From a virus: a stretch of 64,000 nt of DNA. How positions within the stretch are numbered: the stretch's first letter is position 1; each line of letters opens with the position of its first letter. The notes under the pieces are model-generated. The model searched no databases, was not told where the DNA came from, and was given only the letters and a program-made list of their open reading frames with translations. This document shows, one piece after another, positions 5,341 to 64,000 of this stretch. The stretch covers positions 54,746 through 118,745 of IMG/VR virus record IMGVR_UViG_3300022916_000006; one strand, given 5' to 3'. The position numbers and the translations under genes were made by a program.

Positions 5341-5398
5341 ATTGCATGAAAAATTGAATAAAGATAAAATAGAGTTTTAAACAAAAAAGGAACCGTAA

Positions 5399-54496: not shown

Positions 54497-54822
54497 GATT
54501 CTTATTATATATCATATTCTTTAATATTGCAATGGCATACGGACCATTTGTTCAACTTGATATTGTAGATTCTAATGGTGAAGTATATGTATCAGCACCG
54601 TCATATACATTCTTTGATATTGATGATAGTGATCGACGAATCATAATTGATGATAAATGGGATGGTGATGTTGATACTTTGTATTATGATTATGTGGATG
54701 TTGATGCTGAGAATAATGAATTCTATTATGTAGATGGTGAACCACGATTAATCATAGATAGAGTACATGAGATAATTTTAATTTTAGACATGTCATTTTC
54801 ATTGGTGTATCTTAAAAACTGA
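54493..54822 (+). CDS. Signal-peptide-bearing protein (GDxDT motif)
   Basis: Hydrophobic N-terminus; WDGDVDTLYY. Confidence 0.65.
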   Translation: MRFLLYIIFFNIAMAYGPFVQLDIVDSNGEVYVSAPSYTFFDIDDSDRRIIIDDKWDGDVDTLYYDYVDVDAENNEFYYVDGEPRLIIDRVHEIILILDMSFSLVYLKN

Positions 54823-56823: not shown

Positions 56824-57030
56824 ATGATCAAACAAGAACGAGAAGCTATTGATTTAGCAATTGAACTTTGTGAAAAAGCACAATATGGACAGCGACACAT
56901 AAAACATTTAGAAAATATAAGACTGATATTAGAAGGTGTGGATACTCCTAAAGTATTGTTAATGTTAGAGCAGGCTAGAATAGCTAGTATCAAACATTGC
57001 AAAAAATGTGGTCAAGAAATAAAAAAATAA
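56824..57030 (+). CDS. Hypothetical protein
   Basis: Short ORF ending HCKKCG. Confidence 0.55.
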   Translation: MIKQEREAIDLAIELCEKAQYGQRHIKHLENIRLILEGVDTPKVLLMLEQARIASIKHCKKCGQEIKK

Positions 57031-57046
57031 AAAAAAATGAAAAAAG

Positions 57047-57086
57047 TTGTTGACTTACTGATTTTACCCTATATTTATATATAGTA
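57047..57086 (+). promoter_or_regulatory. Class B promoter heading the tRNA cluster
   Basis: TTGTTGACTTACTGATTTTACCCTATATTTATATATAGTA. Confidence 0.75.
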
Positions 57087-57463
57087 AGTGATGTAACTTA
57101 CATAAACGTTTTAACAGATAATAACTGTTGAATTAAGGAGAACAATAACTTATATTGTAAAATTATGAGAATGTTAGTAGTAAATAGTAAAATTAATTTG
57201 AATGAATCGAATATTAGATTTATTGGGACTTGGGATATAAGTCTTGGTGTGATTGGTACGGATTGTCGTGACCATTATATGGAACATCAAGCGAGACTAC
57301 CAAGAACTGAAAATTTAATGAAACCGATTATATCATCAAACTAATAATAAACTAATAAACTATAAAATACTAAACATAAAATATAACTCATAATCCTTAA
57401 ACTTTAAACAGTGTAGTTTTAAAGACACTTAAAAAACTTTAAATTTGACATAAGAAAAATATT

Positions 57464-57539
57464 GCAGTAGTAGTTCCAATTGGCTAGAACGTGAGATTTC
57501 CAATCTTGATGCTTATGGGTTCGAGTCCCATCTACTGCA
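57464..57539 (+). tRNA. trnG: tRNA-Gly(TCC)
   Basis: GCAGTAG/CTACTGC acceptor; TGAGA-TTTCCAA-TCTTG; ATGGG-TTCGAGT-CCCAT. Confidence 0.9.
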
Positions 57540-57543
57540 CACT

Positions 57544-57614
57544 GCGAATATAGTTCAGTGGAAGAACACAACGTTGCCAACGTTGGTATGAGAGTTCGAT
57601 TCTCTCTATTCGCT
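57544..57614 (+). tRNA. trnG: tRNA-Gly(GCC)
   Basis: GCGAATA/TATTCGC; CAACG-TTGCCAA-CGTTG; GAGAG-TTCGATT-CTCTC. Confidence 0.92.
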
Positions 57615-57725
57615 CAAATGAAAAAATAATTTAAAATAATTGTTTTTTTATATAGATTATATGTTATAGATTACATAACATAATTGAGATGCTATTTGAC
57701 ATTGTTGGTAACTGTTTTAATAATT

Positions 57726-57784
57726 GCTATGTTCATGAAACACGGTACAGTAGTTCGCTACACATCAAAAGTAGTGAACATAGC
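57726..57784 (+). ncRNA. Unassigned small structured RNA
   Basis: GCTATGTTCA/TGAACATAGC 10-bp closing stem. Confidence 0.45.
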
Positions 57785-57792
57785 ATAAGTTT

Positions 57793-57862
57793 GGCGATAT
57801 GTGATGGTTCACGTGAATGCTTCATACGTATTCATTGATCAGTTCGAAACTGGTTGTCGCTA
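57793..57862 (+). tRNA. Non-canonical tRNA with CAT anticodon (Met/Ile2-like)
   Basis: GGCGATA/TGTCGCT; 4-bp D stem with TGGT loop; 7-bp anticodon stem; ATCAG-TTCGAAA-CTGGT. Confidence 0.75.
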
Positions 57863-57864
57863 CT

Positions 57865-57950
57865 GTGTAGGTGGTTAGATTGGTAATACACTCGACTGTG
57901 AATCGAGTTGGAAGATGTTCCTCATGCGGGTTCAAATCCCGTCCTACACC
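57865..57950 (+). tRNA. trnH: tRNA-His(GTG) with long variable arm
   Basis: GTGTAGG/CCTACAC, C73; CTCGA-CTGTGAA-TCGAG; 18-nt variable region with a GGAA/TTCC stem. Confidence 0.85.
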
Positions 57951-57951
57951 C

Positions 57952-58039
57952 TATAGGATGGCGTGGTAGCCTGAGTGGAAAGATGTTTTGAGATAGGGAC
58001 CTCAAACTCATAGAAACTTGTAAGCCAATTACTCCTATA
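57952..58039 (+). ncRNA. Unassigned structured RNA between tRNA-His and tRNA-Tyr
   Basis: TATAGGA/TCCTATA closing stem; TTTGAG/CTCAAA and TGAG/CTCA inner stems. Confidence 0.45.
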
Positions 58040-58043
58040 TTTT

Positions 58044-58123
58044 GGATGTTTAGCCCGACTGGTAAGGGGGGAATCTGTAAAATTTCTTAACCATCAAGAT
58101 GAGTTCGAATCTCTCAACATCCA
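58044..58123 (+). tRNA. trnY: tRNA-Tyr(GTA)
   Basis: GGATGTT/AACATCC; GGAAT-CTGTAAA-ATTTC; long variable arm; bulged T stem. Confidence 0.8.
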
Positions 58124-58125
58124 CA

Positions 58126-58256
58126 AAGTGAAGTCTGATTAATAAATTGATTCTTTAATGCTTATTTGTAATATACTGAGAGTGTATTTATTTTATTGAA
58201 TTTTTATAATTACGCTGTATATTTAATTAAATAATGTATTTAACTAGACTTCACTT
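58126..58256. repeat. 131-bp element bounded by inverted repeats
   Basis: AAGTGAAGTCT (58126-58136) and AGACTTCACTT (58246-58256), extending to 15/17. Confidence 0.7.
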
Positions 58257-58261
58257 AATTT

Positions 58262-58332
58262 GGTTTGGTAGCTCAATGGTAGAGCGTGGGGCTGTTAACC
58301 TCGTGACTAAGGTTCGATTCCTTATCAAACCG
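58262..58332 (+). tRNA. trnN: tRNA-Asn(GTT)
   Basis: GGTTTGG/TCAAACC, G73; CTGTTAA loop; TAAGG-TTCGATT-CCTTA. Confidence 0.92.
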
Positions 58333-58336
58333 CAAT

Positions 58337-58408
58337 AGGAGTATGGTGTAACGGTAGCACACTGGACTTTGAATCCGGGAATGTCGAGTTCGATTCTCAC
58401 TACTTCTG
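58337..58408 (+). tRNA. trnQ: tRNA-Gln(TTG)
   Basis: AGGAGTA/TACTTCT; CTGGA-CTTTGAA-TCCGG; bulged T stem. Confidence 0.88.
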
Positions 58409-58439
58409 CAAAAATAAATAAAAATGATTTAAAAATTAT

Positions 58440-58514
58440 GGGCGGTTAGTATAAATGGACTAGTACACAAAACTTTCAATTTTGGGAATGCGAGTTCGAA
58501 TCTCGTACCGTCTA
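58440..58514 (+). tRNA. trnE: tRNA-Glu(TTC)
   Basis: GGGCGGT/ACCGTCT; CAAAA-CTTTCAA-TTTTG; GCGAG-TTCGAAT-CTCGT. Confidence 0.9.
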
Positions 58515-58526
58515 CAGACTTGGGAC

Positions 58527-58551
58527 AGGAGTTCGATTCTCCTATCGCCTA
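58527..58551 (+). pseudogene. Orphan tRNA 3' fragment (T arm plus acceptor strand)
   Basis: AGGAG-TTCGATT-CTCCT-ATCGCCT-A. Confidence 0.7.
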
Positions 58552-58571
58552 CAAAAAAAGGATATTACATT

Positions 58572-58847
58572 ATGAACATAGCACAAAAATTTATGGCTTA
58601 TGTCTTTAAATGGCAATATGTAAGATTGATACATGATTATCGTATGAATCAACCAGATTTAATTAGACGTGCGTATTCTATCGATGATAATTGGTTTGCT
58701 AATCCATATTTACCAAGTACAAGAGTACATTTAACATCTACTGGTACAGTATATAAAGGTAGATATATTATTGATTCTGTGAATTATGCTAGTTATATTG
58801 ATAGTTGGGAGCCAATTACAAAAGGTATGATTGCGTTGTATTTATGA
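58572..58847 (+). CDS. Hypothetical protein
   Basis: AAGGA RBS; start corrected (the ORF-track N-terminus overlaps the tRNA). Confidence 0.7.
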   Translation: MNIAQKFMAYVFKWQYVRLIHDYRMNQPDLIRRAYSIDDNWFANPYLPSTRVHLTSTGTVYKGRYIIDSVNYASYIDSWEPITKGMIALYL

Positions 58848-59773
58848 AATATTGTATTTACGATATAGTCAATGAGAAATATCATACCAAATATGGTAAA
58901 ATGTTTAATTATAAACATTGGCATGATGAATTGACGAGTGATGTACAATTGTTTGATTCATATGAAGATGCATTTGATCATTTAAATCATTGTGATATGG
59001 ATGATATAGTAACAATGATAAAAGAAGTAACAGATGCAGAAGCGGTGATAATGTTATTATGAAATATTATATATATGATAACAAAGTAAAATTATATTTT
59101 AAAGAAATTGGATATTATGAAGAAGGTGAATGGTCGTATGATTTATCAATACGTGTTAGATTCTTTAATTCTAACATTGAGGCTCGAAATTACATGTTTA
59201 CGTGGTTGGAATATAAATGGTACAAACATCTAGAAGTGAAATCAATATCAGATGCAGAATATATTGTAAGAATATTATGAAATATTATATGAAATATTAT
59301 ATATATGATCGAGATGATCCTGAGGAAGTATATTATAATAAGTGTGATATCGATGATCGTAATTCAATGTTCCCCTCAAGGTGGTCCAATAAAATTACAA
59401 GTGAACTTAGATTATTTGATTCATATGAAGATGCTTTTAACTACTCACAACAATGGTCTGATAATATATGGTATCGTGATTTAGAAATAAGATCAATATC
59501 AGAATCAGCGTTTGTGGCAACCATATTATGAAATATTATATAGTGGATAAGTATGAGGATGTAACTTCAATATATTATATAGGAAACCATCGTTGGTATT
59601 CTACATTAAGTAATAATATAAAATTATTTACAACTAGATATTATGCAAAAAAATATATTACATTGAATCTTAATGTTGTGCATCATATCTTTTATAATGG
59701 GATCATACATGGGAATGGTTGCTATGTGATAAAATCAATATCAGATGAAGAAGCTGTAATAACAAAATTATAA
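58844..59773 (+). other. MKYY family block inside the tRNA cluster (4 CDS: 58844-59062, 59059-59280, 59277-59531, 59528-59773)
   Basis: Shared motifs; tails read K(E/S)(V/I)(T/S)D(A/E)E. Confidence 0.9.
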
Positions 59774-59780
59774 AATAAAT

Positions 59781-59862
59781 GGTTCTGTGGTGGAACGTAT
59801 ACACGCTGTACTCAAAATGCAGTGATCGAAAGGTCGTGAGAGTTCAAATCTCTCCAGAACTA
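59781..59862 (+). tRNA. trnL: tRNA-Leu(CAA)
   Basis: GGTTCTG/CAGAACT; CTGTA-CTCAAAA-TGCAG; long variable arm. Confidence 0.88.
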
Positions 59863-59874
59863 CAATAAAGAATT

Positions 59875-59958
59875 GGTCCTGTGGTGGAATGGTAGACACA
59901 TCAGATTTAAAATCTGTGGCTCTTTATGGGCGTGAGAGTTCAAGTCTCTCCAGGACTA
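59875..59958 (+). tRNA. trnL: tRNA-Leu(TAA)
   Basis: GGTCCTG/CAGGACT; TTTAAAA loop; long variable arm. Confidence 0.9.
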
Positions 59959-60047
59959 CAAAAATAAAAAAAATAAATGTTTTTTTATATTAATAAAATG
60001 TAATATATTTACATAGTTAATTGATAACAAAAGTAAGGAAATCACAC

Positions 60048-60260
60048 ATGAGTAATTTATTTGATAGAATGTTTCCACCAGAGAATTATCCAAAATATAT
60101 GTTTAGATTGTTGAAAGATTTTGGTGATCATAAAGCTGATACTGAGTTTGATTGCTGTGGTGGAAATGTACGAGGTATATCAACTAAGAGTGGAGCAACG
60201 ATTAATTTTGATGATAGTGACTATTTTGAATACGTTGGAGAGGTTGAAAACAATGTCTAA
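60048..60260 (+). CDS. Hypothetical protein
   Basis: AAGGAAATCACACATG start. Confidence 0.7.
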   Translation: MSNLFDRMFPPENYPKYMFRLLKDFGDHKADTEFDCCGGNVRGISTKSGATINFDDSDYFEYVGEVENNV

Positions 60261-60486
60261 ACAAAATATCAAAAGATTTTTAGGAACAAGATTTCATGTT
60301 TCTAAACATGGTGAACGAGAACTACGTAAACATCAGTTGAATCCAATAAAAGCTATGCAACGTCTTACAGTTGAGTTAGCAAAAAATGATGATAGAGGTG
60401 GTGTTTATGTTGAATCAAATGGTAAGTTGTGGAGAAAGAATAAACACGTTTCTCCAGAAGAATTGTTTAATCAATTAGAAAAATAA
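60253..60486 (+). CDS. Hypothetical protein
   Basis: GAGG RBS; start corrected to MSKQNI. Confidence 0.7.
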   Translation: MSKQNIKRFLGTRFHVSKHGERELRKHQLNPIKAMQRLTVELAKNDDRGGVYVESNGKLWRKNKHVSPEELFNQLEK

Positions 60487-60498
60487 AGGATTAATGAT

Positions 60499-60699
60499 AT
60501 GAAAGTAACCATGCCACTAACAGTTGGTAGATTATTATGTGGTACAGTAAGAGACTTTTTAAATAAATGTAAGTTTCAAGGAATGGATATTACATTTATA
60601 GAATCTTCTGGATGGATTGAACGAGACTTTATTGTCAAAGGTTCTAGAAAAGATATTGAAACTATTAGAATTTCAATACAAAATTATATAAATGCTTAA
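60499..60699 (+). CDS. Hypothetical protein
   Basis: AAGGA RBS. Confidence 0.7.
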   Translation: MKVTMPLTVGRLLCGTVRDFLNKCKFQGMDITFIESSGWIERDFIVKGSRKDIETIRISIQNYINA

Positions 60700-60708
60700 A
60701 AAAACAAT

Positions 60709-60737
60709 GGGTGCGTAGCTCAGCTTGGTAGAGCATT
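60709..60737 (+). pseudogene. 5' half of split tRNA-Lys(TTT)
   Basis: GGGTGCG-TA-GCTC-AGCTTGGTA-GAGC-ATT; the acceptor strand pairs with 61771-61777. Confidence 0.85.
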
Positions 60738-60766
60738 ATTGTTTTTAGTTTTTTGAAATATTAAAA

Positions 60767-60838
60767 TGGTCCATAGGTTAACTGGTAAACCAAATGACTT
60801 TTAATCATTAATTCTCAGTTCGAGTCTGAGTGGGCCAA
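60767..60838 (+). tRNA. trnK: tRNA-Lys(TTT), intact, inside the insertion
   Basis: TGGTCCA/TGGGCCA; AATGA-CTTTTAA-TCATT; CTCAG-TTCGAGT-CTGAG. Confidence 0.9.
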
Positions 60839-60904
60839 CTTAAATAAATTTTTAATCAAAAAACATAGGTTCGACTATATTTATTAGTATAGGAGAATTT
60901 ATAA

Positions 60905-61732
60905 ATGAAGAAATGTAAAAAATGTGGTGATGAATTTGAACCACGAAAAGGATTGATAAGTTATTGTTCTTTGTCATGTAGAAACACAAGAGTACATTCA
61001 GAAGAAACTAAAAAGAAAATATCAGATACGAATTCTGGTAAATATTTTGGAACATATGCATTACCAAAAAAATGTAAATATTGTGAAAAAGTATTAGTAG
61101 ATTATTTACGCAAAGCAAATACTTGTAATGGTTGTAAACCGTATGTTCTTAATATAAAATTATTTGAAAAATTAAATATACATGAAACTGATTTAGGTAA
61201 AGCTAACATATTAGCATGTGATAAATTAATTGATTTATATTATTCTAACAATAAATCATTAAGTGAGATATATGAAGAATATAATATACGTGGTAATACC
61301 ATATATTATTTTTTAAAGAAAAACGGAATACCACTACGGACAGTACGTGATGGAGTTAGATTAGCTATTGCATCTGGAAAGATAATAACACCAGTAAATA
61401 AACAATATAAGTCAGGTATACATACGACATGGTTTAATAAAGATATCTTTATGCGTAGTTCATATGAATTTAGATTTGCAACACATTTAGATAAACAGAA
61501 AGTTTTTTACCAATATGAGAAACAATTTGAATATTACTTTGATGATTTATATAGAACATATAGAGCTGATTTTTTTATTCCAGATTGGAATCTTGTGGTT
61601 GAAACAAAAAGTAGATACTATTATGAAAAAGATAAAAAAAAGATTGGAATACAAAGGCAAGCAGTGTTAGATTCAGGGTATGAATTTGTATTGTTATTAG
61701 ATGAAGATGAAATTGATAATTTTAATAAATAA
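60905..61732 (+). CDS. Putative homing endonuclease: Zn fingers plus C-terminal PD-(D/E)XK domain
   Basis: CKKC...CSLSC, CKYC...CNGC; RSSYE...YRADF...VVETK; TATATTTAT motif and AGGAG RBS upstream. Confidence 0.8.
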   Translation: MKKCKKCGDEFEPRKGLISYCSLSCRNTRVHSEETKKKISDTNSGKYFGTYALPKKCKYCEKVLVDYLRKANTCNGCKPYVLNIKLFEKLNIHETDLGKANILACDKLIDLYYSNNKSLSEIYEEYNIRGNTIYYFLKKNGIPLRTVRDGVRLAIASGKIITPVNKQYKSGIHTTWFNKDIFMRSSYEFRFATHLDKQKVFYQYEKQFEYYFDDLYRTYRADFFIPDWNLVVETKSRYYYEKDKKKIGIQRQAVLDSGYEFVLLLDEDEIDNFNK

Positions 61733-61778
61733 GGTCTTTTAAACCATTGGTCGTCGGGTTCAAATCCCACCGCACCTA
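61733..61778 (+). pseudogene. 3' half of split tRNA-Lys(TTT)
   Basis: GGT-CTTTTAA-ACCAT-TGGTC-GTCGGG-TTCAAAT-CCCAC-CGCACCT-A begins immediately after the nuclease stop. Confidence 0.85.
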
Positions 61779-61783
61779 CAAAT

Positions 61784-62160
61784 ATGAAGTACTATATAAT
61801 ATCACATAGAGAAGATGATAAAGGTGATCCTCTAATATCTGATGCAATTGATTTAAATGAAGCAAAAGATTTATTAGCTGAAATTATGGATGCTTTTACT
61901 GGGAGTATAATTTTTCCAGATGCTACATCAGATGATTTTGAAATCGTTGATGAAAATGAAGCAGTGGCATATTTGTTATGAAATATGTTTTAAAATATAC
62001 TATAGATGGTGAATATGTAAGTAAAGATTGTGATACTTATGTATCTAAAATGAGAGATGCTATAGTATTTGATTTAAAAGAAGATGCTGAATCTGAAGCT
62101 GGTGTGACGGAGCGTATAATCGAAATGACAGATGCAGAATATATAGTTAAAATATTATGA
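61784..62160 (+). other. MKYY family pair (61784-61981, 61978-62160)
   Basis: Shared motifs. Confidence 0.85.
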
Positions 62161-62429
62161 AGAAGAAAACTGATATCAAGAAAATTCATATTAAATCCAA
62201 TGGTAGTTTTTTTATGAAATCGAAAGATATTTTCGATGATAAAGAGAAATCATTAAAACTTATTAAAAAATTACAAAAGAGTGTTGATCATTATATAGGA
62301 AAAACTAATAAATATAAATGTAAACATTGTAAAAAAATAGTAGAACGTGATAGTGATAAACAATGGATTAAAAGTTATTGTGATGTGACTGGAAAGAATG
62401 TACATTTGATATTGATAAAGAAAAAATAA
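62157..62429 (+). CDS. Hypothetical basic protein with CxxC...C
   Basis: ATGA overlap; CKHC...YCDVTG. Confidence 0.65.
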   Translation: MKKKTDIKKIHIKSNGSFFMKSKDIFDDKEKSLKLIKKLQKSVDHYIGKTNKYKCKHCKKIVERDSDKQWIKSYCDVTGKNVHLILIKKK

Positions 62430-62433
62430 AAAT

Positions 62434-62517
62434 GGCTGATTGGTGGAATTGGTATACACGCTGGCCTTAGGTCCCAGTATCCGAAAGGGTGTAAGAGTTC
62501 GAGTCTCTTATCAGCTA
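62434..62517 (+). tRNA. trnL: tRNA-Leu(TAG)
   Basis: GGCTGAT/ATCAGCT; CTTAGGT loop; long variable arm. Confidence 0.88.
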
Positions 62518-62530
62518 CATGAAAACATAT

Positions 62531-62606
62531 GCCTCAGTATCGCCTCGGATTTCTAACCCGTAGAAAGCGTAACGGACACATAAAGGTTCGAATCCTTTCT
62601 GGGGTA
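62531..62606 (+). tRNA. D-armless tRNA-like RNA with TCT (Arg) anticodon
   Basis: GCCTCAG/CTGGGGT; CGGA-TTTCTAA-CCCG; AAAGG-TTCGAAT-CCTTT; only about 7 nt where the D arm should be. Confidence 0.65.
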
Positions 62607-62628
62607 CAAGTAATTGCGAATTACGTAT

Positions 62629-62708
62629 ATAATAATATATTGTCTAGTAGTCAATTCCAATGACTTTAATATTTCCTATGGATGGAAAGCTAGATGATGT
62701 GTTATTAT
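62629..62708 (+). ncRNA. Unassigned three-way-junction RNA
   Basis: 19-bp closing helix with G-U pairs; AGTCA-ATTCCAA-TGACT and TTTCC-TATGGAT-GGAAA hairpins. Confidence 0.5.
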
Positions 62709-62729
62709 CTGAATAAAATAAAAAATTAT

Positions 62730-62763
62730 GCTGACATTACCTAAGCGGTCGACAGCAGGATTT
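62730..62763 (+). pseudogene. 5' half of a split tRNA (tentatively Thr TGT)
   Basis: GCTGACA acceptor strand perfectly complementary to 63921-63927; AAGCGGTCG D-loop-like segment; ends CAGGATTT. Confidence 0.75.
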
Positions 62764-62770
62764 ATATAAT

Positions 62771-62844
62771 GCTTCTATATGCTTAACTGGAAAAGCAACT
62801 GCCTTGTAAGCAGAAGTTCGGGGTTCGGTTCCTCGTAGAAGCCC
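62771..62844 (+). tRNA. trnT: tRNA-Thr(TGT), intact, inside the insertion
   Basis: GCTTCTA/TAGAAGC; CTGC-CTTGTAA-GCAG; CGGGG-TTCGGTT-CCTCG. Confidence 0.85.
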
Positions 62845-62926
62845 AACAAAAAAAAATTGAAAAAAGTAGTTCGATTTTCATTGTTGGCTTATATTTATAT
62901 ATATATATAAGAACGGAGAATTGAAT

Positions 62927-63877
62927 ATGTATAAATGTAAATATTGTAATAAAGAATGTAAAACGTATCAGTCGTTAGGTGGTCATACAGTCAAATGTAA
63001 TGATAATCCGAAAAAAGATGAGTATATAAAAAAAGCTAATAAAGCAAAAACACACGAACGAAATGAATATGAATTTGAGTGTAAAAAATGTAATAAAATA
63101 TATAGCGTAGAATTAACTGAAAATCAATTAAAGAAAAATCAATTTAAAAAGCACTGTAGCAGAGCGTGTGCGAATAGTAGAACCTGGTCAGATGAAGATA
63201 AAGTTAAAAAAAGTATAAGTAGTAAAACATCTAATTTTGTACGAGAATCACGAGAAAATAGATGGAAAGACTATAAAAAGAAAGTAAAAAAGGTAAGGGC
63301 TAGTTCATATATTAAGGTTAAAAATCCTAAAAAGCCTGGACCTATGCGAGCCGTGAGACGTATTGTATATTGTAAACATTGTAATGTTAAATTTGAAGTA
63401 TATAATAAATCAATTCAAAAGTTTTGTTCACAGCCATGTTCGAATGATTTTAGACGTGCAAATAAATCGTATAAAAAAATGATGAGTGAACAAATGAAAT
63501 TACAATATAAAAATGGTCGTAAAATATATGGTGGGCACGACAATGTTAAGTGGTATGAATATAATGGAATTAAAGTGCACGGTACGTGGGAATTGCGAAC
63601 TTGTAAAATTTTAGATAAGTGGAAACGAATTGGTAAAATTATAAATTGGGAATATGAATCAACACTACATAGATTTCAATATGTAAATGATACTGGACAA
63701 CATACATATATACCAGATTTTGCGATTTATAATGTTGATGGTACAGTTAGTATTCTTGAAATAAAGGGATTGAAGCGTGATGATGTTGATTTAAAAACAA
63801 AATCAACATTAAAAGCTGGATATCAAATTGAAATTTGGGATGATATTAAAACAATAAAAAGATATGAGTTGGAGTAA
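62927..63877 (+). CDS. Putative homing endonuclease: multiple Zn fingers plus C-terminal PD-(D/E)XK domain
   Basis: CKYC...H...C, CKKC...CSRAC, CKHC...CSQPC; GTWE...YIPDF...LEIKG; GGAG RBS (start corrected from TTG 62921). Confidence 0.8.
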   Translation: MYKCKYCNKECKTYQSLGGHTVKCNDNPKKDEYIKKANKAKTHERNEYEFECKKCNKIYSVELTENQLKKNQFKKHCSRACANSRTWSDEDKVKKSISSKTSNFVRESRENRWKDYKKKVKKVRASSYIKVKNPKKPGPMRAVRRIVYCKHCNVKFEVYNKSIQKFCSQPCSNDFRRANKSYKKMMSEQMKLQYKNGRKIYGGHDNVKWYEYNGIKVHGTWELRTCKILDKWKRIGKIINWEYESTLHRFQYVNDTGQHTYIPDFAIYNVDGTVSILEIKGLKRDDVDLKTKSTLKAGYQIEIWDDIKTIKRYELE

Positions 63878-63928
63878 TCAGGTGGATAGATAAGTTCTCC
63901 CACGTAGGTTCGAATCCTACTGTCAGCT
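63874..63928 (+). pseudogene. 3' half of a split tRNA (tentatively Thr TGT)
   Basis: GTAA-TCAGG-long variable arm-GTAGG-TTCGAAT-CCTAC-TGTCAGC-T. Confidence 0.8.
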
Positions 63929-64000
63929 CAAATAAAAAGGAAAAAAATGACTGATCTAAAAGAAAAACTAATAGCACTTGCTGTTGTAGTATTTTGTGTT

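Follow-up and report, generated by a model that had tools for sequence, protein, structure and literature searches.

A cassette of a tRNA-Thr(UGU) gene and a nuclease gene within the tRNA-Thr(UGU) gene of a phage

The IMG/VR virus record IMGVR_UViG_3300022916_000006 is 118,745 bp long, and its last 64 kb (positions 54,746 to 118,745; 64,000 nucleotides (nt), hereafter the window) close on an array of 12 tRNAs detected by ARAGORN at 57464-62844. Analysis of the end of this array makes it close to certain that a cassette consisting of a canonical tRNA-Thr(UGU) gene (the cargo tRNA) and a nuclease gene lies inside the phage's own tRNA-Thr(UGU) gene (the resident gene), between the D-stem and the anticodon, leaving the resident gene as two dead halves. 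The 1.1-kb insert is probably selfish DNA, and we read it, with a probability of roughly 0.6, as a free-standing homing-endonuclease-like cassette which carries a compensating isoacceptor tRNA and whose nuclease would cleave the tRNA gene.

The interrupted tRNA-Thr gene and its intact allele

Exact 20-24-mers from each half of the interrupted gene were searched in viral contigs and both matched a single contig, L001, which on its minus strand (13628-13537) has an intact tRNA-Thr(UGU) gene of 92 nt with a long extra arm (ARAGORN) and a perfect anticodon arm (CCTGA / CUUGUAA / UCAGG). The flanks of the window are identical to L001 over 127/127 nt on the 5' side (up to 62755) and over 127/127 nt on the 3' side (63874 to the window end), and in place of the 10 bp of L001 (GTCCTGACTT) the window has 1118 bp. 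L001 shows the halves to be collinear within a single gene, not derived from different genes, and the anticodon of that gene, UGU, is the same as that of the cargo tRNA.

The 5' remnant (26 nt) comprises the acceptor 5' strand GCTGACA (62730-62736), U8-U9, the 5' strand of the D-stem, the D-loop and 2 nt at the start of the D-stem's 3' strand, while the 3' remnant (55 nt) comprises G35, the 3' strand of the anticodon stem, the 21-nt extra arm, the T-arm GTAGG-TTCGAAT-CCTAC, the acceptor 3' strand TGTCAGC (63921-63927) and the discriminator. Together these 26 + 55 nt (81/81 identical to the intact allele) are what remains of a tRNA of about 91-92 nt; the 10 lost bp are the end of the D-stem, the anticodon stem 5' strand CCTGA, C32, U33 and U34. 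In the nuclease gene, the final sense codon ends on G35 of the former anticodon loop, and the TAA stop that follows (63875-63877) coincides with U36-A37-A38. At the left junction a 3-nt microhomology, CAG, is possible from our own reading of the sequence. Coordinates of all features are given in Table 1.

Several of these points had been proposed in a sequence-only reading of the same DNA. Its pairing of the acceptor strands GCTGACA (62730) and TGTCAGC (63921) is borne out, the two strands belonging to the same gene and spanning 92 nt in the intact L001 copy, and its tentative assignment of the split gene to tRNA-Thr(UGU) agrees with the ARAGORN call on the empty allele. The intact tRNA-Thr(UGU) with the same anticodon that it had noticed inside the insertion was recovered by both ARAGORN and Rfam, the identity of the nuclease's last base and stop with the GTAA of the tRNA loop was confirmed from the sequence, and the long variable arm is real, since the intact allele has the same arm. 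The junction itself had to be moved. The left half had been joined at 62763, 8 nt beyond the point at which homology to the intact gene stops (62755), so that 'CAGGATTT' is insert sequence; the two G-A mismatches reported for the rejoined anticodon stem are an artefact of this wrong join, which used insert bases in place of the deleted CCTGA strand, and the cargo tRNA lies 15 nt, not 7 nt, inside the insertion. When the join 62763-63874 and all joins in a 22 x 35 grid were submitted to ARAGORN, many different anticodons were returned and a join alone cannot fix the identity of the tRNA; this ambiguity was settled by the empty allele.

Because the empty allele has a perfect anticodon stem and the filled allele lacks 10 nt of stem, deletion of the insert could not yield the empty form, and the insertion is the derived state.

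It is very improbable that the interrupted tRNA is still functional, with the insert as an intron or with the halves joined in trans in the manner of archaeal split tRNAs. The collinear halves share a strand and show no decay (81/81 nt), the interruption is close to the anticodon loop, the usual position of tRNA introns, and the tRNA-Asp gene beside a nuclease of the same clade has a group I intron, all of which would suit such a tRNA. However, the 10 nt that include the anticodon stem 5' strand and the start of the loop are absent, so that no splice rebuilds the tRNA; neither the group I model (RF00028) nor any other intron model matches in 57000-64000 at E <= 1, the intron of contig L013, a positive control for the method, scoring 93.5 bits; and ARAGORN in intron mode gives no call for the split tRNA-Thr. 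With this sequence missing and no intron model matched, the interrupted gene is not restorable by splicing.

Table 1. Features of the interrupted tRNA-Thr locus and related features (window coordinates unless a contig is named).
Feature	Position	Strand	Basis or remark
5' remnant of resident tRNA-Thr(UGU)	62730..62755	+	26/26 identical to intact L001 gene
Inserted cassette, 1118 bp	62756..63873	+	Window compared with empty allele L001; same insert with 0 differences in L101
Left spacer of insert, 15 nt (CAGGATTTATATAAT)	62756..62770	+	Not in empty allele L001
Cargo tRNA-Thr(UGU), 74 nt, canonical class I	62771..62844	+	ARAGORN; Rfam; cloverleaf fold
Shine-Dalgarno-like motif GGAG	62915..62918	+	8 nt before nuclease ATG, read from sequence
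Nuclease gene, 316 amino acids	62927..63877	+	Open reading frame; Pfam; PHROG; profile against T7 endonuclease I structures; AlphaFold model
3' remnant of resident tRNA-Thr(UGU)	63874..63928	+	55/55 identical to L001
Lys cassette	60709-61779		Split tRNA-Lys(UUU) around intact tRNA-Lys(UUU) (60767-60839) and gene for a 275-amino-acid nuclease (60905-61732)
Long-armed tRNA-His, 87 nt	57865-57951
Long-armed tRNA-Cys, 86 nt	L001 10680-10765
tRNA-like element	62531-62606		Rfam 27.3 bits against 29; no ARAGORN call; good acceptor stem and T-arm

Haplotypes and polymorphism of the insertion

A metagenome contig, L101, is also filled and has 0 differences from the window over 62629-63882, a segment covering the 5' half, the cargo tRNA and the whole open reading frame (ORF) of the nuclease, and the identical filled form is thereby present on two independent contigs. 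Three haplotypes can be distinguished, namely H1 (the window, filled, with right flank A), H2 (L001, empty, with right flank A) and H3 (L101, filled, with right flank B, a diverged patch). The nuclease gene is accordingly present in the window and L101 and absent from L001 at one site between otherwise homologous contigs, and the insertion is polymorphic in the phage population.

The diverged patch of L101 (1255-1488, compared with L001; in the window, 63883 to about 117 nt past the window end) starts 9 nt to the right of the insert and has 48 substitutions and a 6-nt indel within 234 nt, a divergence of about 20%. Two of the 48 substitutions, at 63883 and 63892, fall in the extra arm of the 3' remnant. 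The patch covers the start of a gene for a membrane protein of 66 amino acids, and the sequence on both sides of it is identical between haplotypes (beyond the patch, L101 is the same as L001). The occurrence of an identical cassette in two flank backgrounds, its presence and absence in one background and a diverged tract starting within 9 nt of the insert form the pattern predicted by homing. The haplotypes support mobility of the cassette, and the patch has a form compatible with a co-conversion tract.

Regarding the geometry of the contigs, L001 and L101 both begin exactly 127 nt before the first difference, L101 ends exactly 127 nt after the last difference, and the record that holds the window ends exactly 127 nt after the right junction. 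Read from this geometry, the contig ends are probably those of de Bruijn assembly bubbles at k=127, with the alleles coexisting in the samples. An assembly artefact, in which unrelated pieces were fused into a chimeric contig, might be suspected given that the record stops 72 nt past the tRNA and that all three contigs break near the site. Such an origin is very improbable, as both junctions recur base for base in the independent contig L101, the exact protein sequence of the nuclease is found on 12 contigs from three sources (and that of the nuclease in the Lys cassette, described below, on 19 contigs), and the contig breaks fit k=127 bubbles arising from real polymorphism. Among GenBank phages, distant blastn detected no relative of the locus and only tRNA-sized matches.

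The cargo tRNA

The cargo tRNA scores 50.5 bits against RF00005, for which the gathering score is 29, and its minimum-energy fold is the cloverleaf. It has G1-C72, C2-G71 and G35-U36, which we take to be the bacterial threonine identity set, and the anticodon loop CUUGUAA. This loop is shared with the resident tRNA-Thr, while both strands of the anticodon stem differ and the two genes are only 54% identical. A 22-mer of the cargo anticodon arm was found at 14 viral loci, with 13 full-length copies matching 41-47 of 74 nt; these loci were rejected as the home of the cargo tRNA, as only the common bacterial-type Thr anticodon arm is shared, and no source locus was detected among the viral loci matched by this 22-mer.

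The nuclease

The N-terminus of the nuclease has a C2H2-like finger (C4, C7, H20, C24), followed by two zinc modules of the form CxxC...CSxxC(xNS), C52/C55/C77/C81 and C149/C152/C167/C171, and all the cysteines of the finger and the modules are invariant or nearly so in 40 homologues. The C-terminal domain (residues 202-316) is of the PD-(D/E)XK type, with E222, P263-D264-F265 and E278-I-K280, and D264 and K280 are invariant in the 40 homologues. A profile of the family matches T7 endonuclease I structures (PDB 1m0d, 1fzr, 3cae, 2pfj) with an E value of 1.4e-5 and with the HTYxPDF and ExKG motifs aligned. In Pfam the protein stays below the gathering threshold of DUF1064 (PF06356; 23.6 bits against 24.7), as the nuclease of the Lys cassette does for Phage_endo_I (PF05367; 19.9 against 29.1), and by sequence comparison the Thr nuclease is a distant relative, not a member, of Phage_endo_I and DUF1064. 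Its PHROG neighbours are annotated as endonucleases and Holliday junction resolvases, and no GIY-YIG family is present among its Pfam and PHROG matches.

An AlphaFold model, for which the 40 homologues were used, has a mean predicted local distance difference test score (pLDDT) of 87. The best structural match of the C-terminal domain by VIA-align is the catalytic domain of TnsA (Z 9.5, root-mean-square deviation 2.5 Å, 105 residues), and the remaining matches, VRR-NUC, Bax1, Vsr, the catalytic domain of I-Bth0305I and Hjc, are all of the restriction-endonuclease fold; Foldseek with the whole model returned nothing at E <= 0.001. Profile and predicted structure together place the nuclease in the PD-(D/E)XK superfamily, with an intact catalytic motif and a modular region that would read DNA. 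The N-terminal array of zinc-finger modules resembles that of modular homing endonucleases, an analogy from domain layout, and searches of the loci with the single protein matched only these N-terminal fingers.

The sister Lys cassette

The same window has a second cassette, in which a split tRNA-Lys(UUU) surrounds an intact tRNA-Lys(UUU) and a nuclease gene (Table 1). The intact tRNA-Lys(UUU) is unrelated to the split one, which is called by ARAGORN in intron mode and has a T-stem with two mismatches. The Lys nuclease is likewise a zinc-finger/PD-(D/E)XK protein and lies just above or at the NUMOD3 threshold. As the sequence-only reading had stated, the two nucleases differ in their finger arrays, the Lys nuclease being a distant relative of the Thr nuclease with a different array; in the alignment that it had called for, their nuclease cores are 24% identical and both have the CSxxCxN(S/T)R module. 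A 27-mer of the Lys 5' half detected no empty Lys allele in viral contigs. The motif TATATTTAT, which is common to both cassettes and was considered as a promoter, is not enriched (14 found against 10 expected), and a scan for promoters and terminators was uninformative in this AT-rich DNA.

The nuclease family and its tRNA-array habitat

The nuclease family comprises 708 representative clusters at E <= 0.001, and a profile search of viral contigs yielded 77 loci with 65 distinct ORFs. Most of these ORFs (57/65) lie within phage tRNA arrays on the tRNA strand, 35/65 have a tRNA ending <=150 nt upstream, and in 25/65 the stop codon is inside the next intact tRNA gene. In eight ORFs the stop is at offset -9, the position of U8-A9-G10/TAA, and offsets of -30 to -44 correspond to the anticodon or variable loop. 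If RNase P processed the downstream tRNA, the nuclease mRNA would lose its stop, and expression could be held back in this way.

In the nuclease tree, clades retain one neighbouring tRNA identity while the other side varies, examples being clades with tRNA-Ala(UGC) downstream, tRNA-Glu(UUC) downstream or tRNA-Ala(UGC) upstream. The upstream tRNA label changes 28 times on the tree against a shuffled mean of 32.1 (1/500 shuffles as low) and the downstream label 22 times against 27.9 (0/500). Shared descent of whole arrays may contribute to this association between clade and tRNA. The window nuclease belongs to a clade of five members, in one of which the nuclease gene is 80 nt downstream of a tRNA-Asp(GUC) gene whose anticodon loop is interrupted by a group I intron of 227 nt (RF00028, 93.5 bits; L013 2104-2407, and the same in L014). 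The arrays of L013 and L014 also hold a second, long-armed tRNA-Asp.

The nuclease genes of the relatives sit between intact tRNA genes, and the tRNAs on either side of them have the same identity about as often as expected by chance (2-3 of about 45). The suggestion that the same architecture seen twice marks a general class is thus upheld in part: the order of parts is the same in the Lys cassette, while generality finds no support among the 65 relatives at 77 viral loci. Fractured tRNAs around the relatives were sought by three methods. Candidates from ARAGORN in intron mode were mostly chimeras of adjacent tRNAs, those from orphan T-arms were intact tRNAs missed by ARAGORN plus one minihelix, and those from a deletion grid were artefacts only. 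The minihelix, in contig L012 (~5341-5392), consists of an acceptor stem and a T-arm (GATGATA ... TAAGG-TTCAAAT-CCTTA-TATCATC) without D arm or anticodon arm, and straddles the stop of a second nuclease gene.

Proposed mechanism and its alternatives

In the homing-endonuclease reading, the nuclease would be a free-standing homing endonuclease with a target in the unbroken resident gene, around the D-stem and anticodon stem. Once an empty genome had suffered a double-strand break, repair from a filled co-infecting genome would copy in the cassette along with more or less of its flank. Destruction of the target would make the filled allele immune, and the cargo tRNA would escape cleavage through an anticodon stem that differs from the resident's on both strands. 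Since the cargo would supply the lost decoding, the insertion would be cheap and the element would act as a natural cut-and-rescue drive. The catalytic motif E222/D264/E278/K280, which is intact and aligns with PDF...ExK of T7 endonuclease I, is in favour of this reading, as are the nuclease fold, the modular zinc-finger array, the tRNA-array habitat of the family with its clade-wise tRNA neighbours, the second cassette with matched anticodons (Lys/Lys) in the same genome and the precedent of SegB.

Regarding the origin of the cassette, the founding insertion was probably an illegitimate repair event that used microhomologies at the two ends, CAG (left) and GTAA (right). That cargo and target have matching anticodons would be explained most simply if the enzyme evolved beside a tRNA-Thr gene, recognises isoacceptor genes and entered one that was too diverged (54% identity) for homologous replacement. 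Selection for rescue would be the alternative source of a match that is found twice in one genome, and the two accounts are inseparable here.

A different origin, which we consider unlikely, would be passive mosaicism, in which a block of tRNA-Thr and nuclease arrived when tRNA arrays of co-infecting phages recombined illegitimately or through short homology, and the nuclease does not target this tRNA gene. The enzyme may then cut something else, serve as a resolvase or repair enzyme, or act as an exclusion nuclease against competing phages, and the anticodon match would be due to selection only, as an insertion that kills a needed tRNA survives if it brings a substitute. The closest solved relative of the nuclease is a junction resolvase and PHROG neighbours are annotated as Holliday junction resolvases, most relatives lie between intact tRNA genes without a fractured target, and the tRNA arrays of these phages are highly mosaic, with 22% of all tRNAs having a same-anticodon twin, as passive exchange would have it. 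It accounts less readily for an anticodon match in two independent cassettes of one genome (about 1 in 20-30 each by chance), for an identical cassette in two flank backgrounds with a breakpoint within 9 nt of the insert, for the long multi-finger DNA-binding array, which is typical of sequence-specific enzymes and not of resolvases, and for the confinement of the nuclease family to tRNA arrays.

Several observations weigh against the homing-endonuclease reading. The putative target site is placed solely by the position of the missing sequence, and T7 endonuclease I, the closest solved sequence relative, is a structure-specific junction resolvase and not a site-specific enzyme. With three haplotypes only, the diverged patch could reflect a small gene that is hypervariable in its own right, and the Thr nuclease protein is identical across all 12 contigs that hold it, which could mean that one phage population was sampled repeatedly and not that the cassette spread between lineages. 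Furthermore, no other fractured tRNA with isoacceptor cargo was found in the 77 related loci by the three methods, and same-anticodon twins are not enriched beside the nucleases (16/74 compared with 98/442 elsewhere in the arrays, 22% in both cases). The cargo arrangement is therefore no rule of the nuclease family, and the fractured-target design is an exception that occurs twice in this one genome.

Relation to known systems and significance

In a literature search, no paper was found to describe a tRNA gene split by a nuclease cassette that brings the matching isoacceptor; the search did return SegB, the T5 enzymes, fractured genes and counter-defence by phage tRNAs. The nearest published system is SegB of T4 and T6, which cuts the tRNA genes of relatives lacking it at a T-arm motif and co-converts the T4 tRNA region (PMC2330249); the block of tRNA-Tyr and segB amplifies as a unit, and SegB homologues are enriched beside tRNAs (PMC13096335). 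Like the cassette, segB is a free-standing nuclease gene in a phage tRNA array, is present or absent between close relatives and has neighbouring tRNA genes that are co-inherited. In contrast to the cassette nuclease, SegB has the GIY-YIG fold and recognises a conserved T-arm motif, and its gene sits between genes and breaks no tRNA gene, with no isoacceptor spare described for a destroyed resident. The T5 enzymes F-TflI/II/IV resemble the cassette nuclease in being encoded by ORFs for site-specific nucleases within the phage tRNA gene cluster, and differ from it, in the passages of PMC2330249 that deal with them, in belonging to the HNH family and in having no fractured tRNA reported.

In fractured genes, a free-standing endonuclease gene has split a conserved gene into two pieces, mainly in phage (Dassa et al., 2009; PMC2677866), and the cassette shares with them both the breakage of a gene by an endonuclease gene and the arrival of control elements along with the endonuclease (PMC2677866). 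The pieces of fractured genes are functional via split inteins, whereas the cassette interrupts an RNA gene from which 10 nt are lost, leaves dead halves with no rejoining device and would be rescued by a second, complete gene.

Among solved structures, T7 endonuclease I is closest in sequence to the nuclease core. It is a small Holliday-junction resolvase that is structure-specific and has no DNA-reading N-terminal domain, whereas the window protein adds about 200 residues of zinc-finger modules. Another PD-(D/E)XK enzyme, I-Ssp6803I, is the homing endonuclease of a group I intron in the anticodon loop of a cyanobacterial tRNA-fMet gene and has no zinc-finger array; it is absent from the matches of the nuclease family profile to solved structures. 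The I-Ssp6803I element is neutral by virtue of its self-splicing intron, whereas the cassette has no intron and its neutrality would come from the replacement gene. In synthetic Cleave-and-Rescue (ClvR) gene drives, Cas9 knocks out the resident copy of a required gene, for which the element supplies a recoded version that is resistant to cleavage. The logic is the same, but ClvR is engineered, is directed at protein-coding targets in diploid animals and is inserted at another locus, whereas the cassette is natural, is found in a phage and lies inside its target gene.

By these comparisons the cassette would belong with the free-standing homing endonucleases of phage tRNA clusters. Homing endonucleases are usually harmless through self-splicing introns or inteins or through an intergenic position; the cassette sits in the middle of an RNA gene without an intron and apparently pays by bringing a complete substitute gene, and neutrality would then be reached by a third route. 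Should the enzyme cut the resident gene, engineered cleave-and-rescue drives would have a natural counterpart in the cassette, which would also offer a way for lineages of phages to exchange their tRNA sets and a source of sequence-specific nucleases that read tRNA genes. With an empty allele, two filled haplotypes and undecayed halves the case is unusually clean and offers a directly testable pair of substrate and enzyme, and it points to an undescribed nuclease family that occurs almost exclusively in phage tRNA arrays.

A broader proposal, possible but rather short of probable, is that cassettes of nuclease and spare tRNA constitute a natural cut-and-rescue drive, in which the enzyme cuts the resident isoacceptor gene and the cassette inserts there and makes up for it with a resistant tRNA. 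Such a drive would have arisen convergently with unrelated nuclease folds, and in this phage lineage it would be exchanging unusual long-armed tRNAs (Thr of 92 nt; also those for His, Cys, Asp and others) one gene at a time for canonical ones, thereby reshaping phage tRNA repertoires and perhaps their exposure to host defences that target tRNAs.

Unusual tRNAs of the phage

Extra arms of class II type are present on normally class I identities in this phage and in the phages that bear the nuclease, namely on tRNAs for Thr, His, Cys, Asp (87-91 nt), Asn (86-90 nt), Met (90 nt), Glu and Ile; the His and Cys examples are listed in Table 1. The cassette described here replaces a long-armed tRNA-Thr with a canonical one.

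Upstream of the interrupted gene, the window has a tRNA-like element (Table 1), which may be an oddly built tRNA-Arg. Its hairpin follows directly after position 9 and has the loop UU-UCU-AA in the window and GU-UCG-AU in a paralogue on L001, which is located directly after the tRNA-Ser(GCU) of that contig, and Streptomyces phages match the element at 77% DNA identity.

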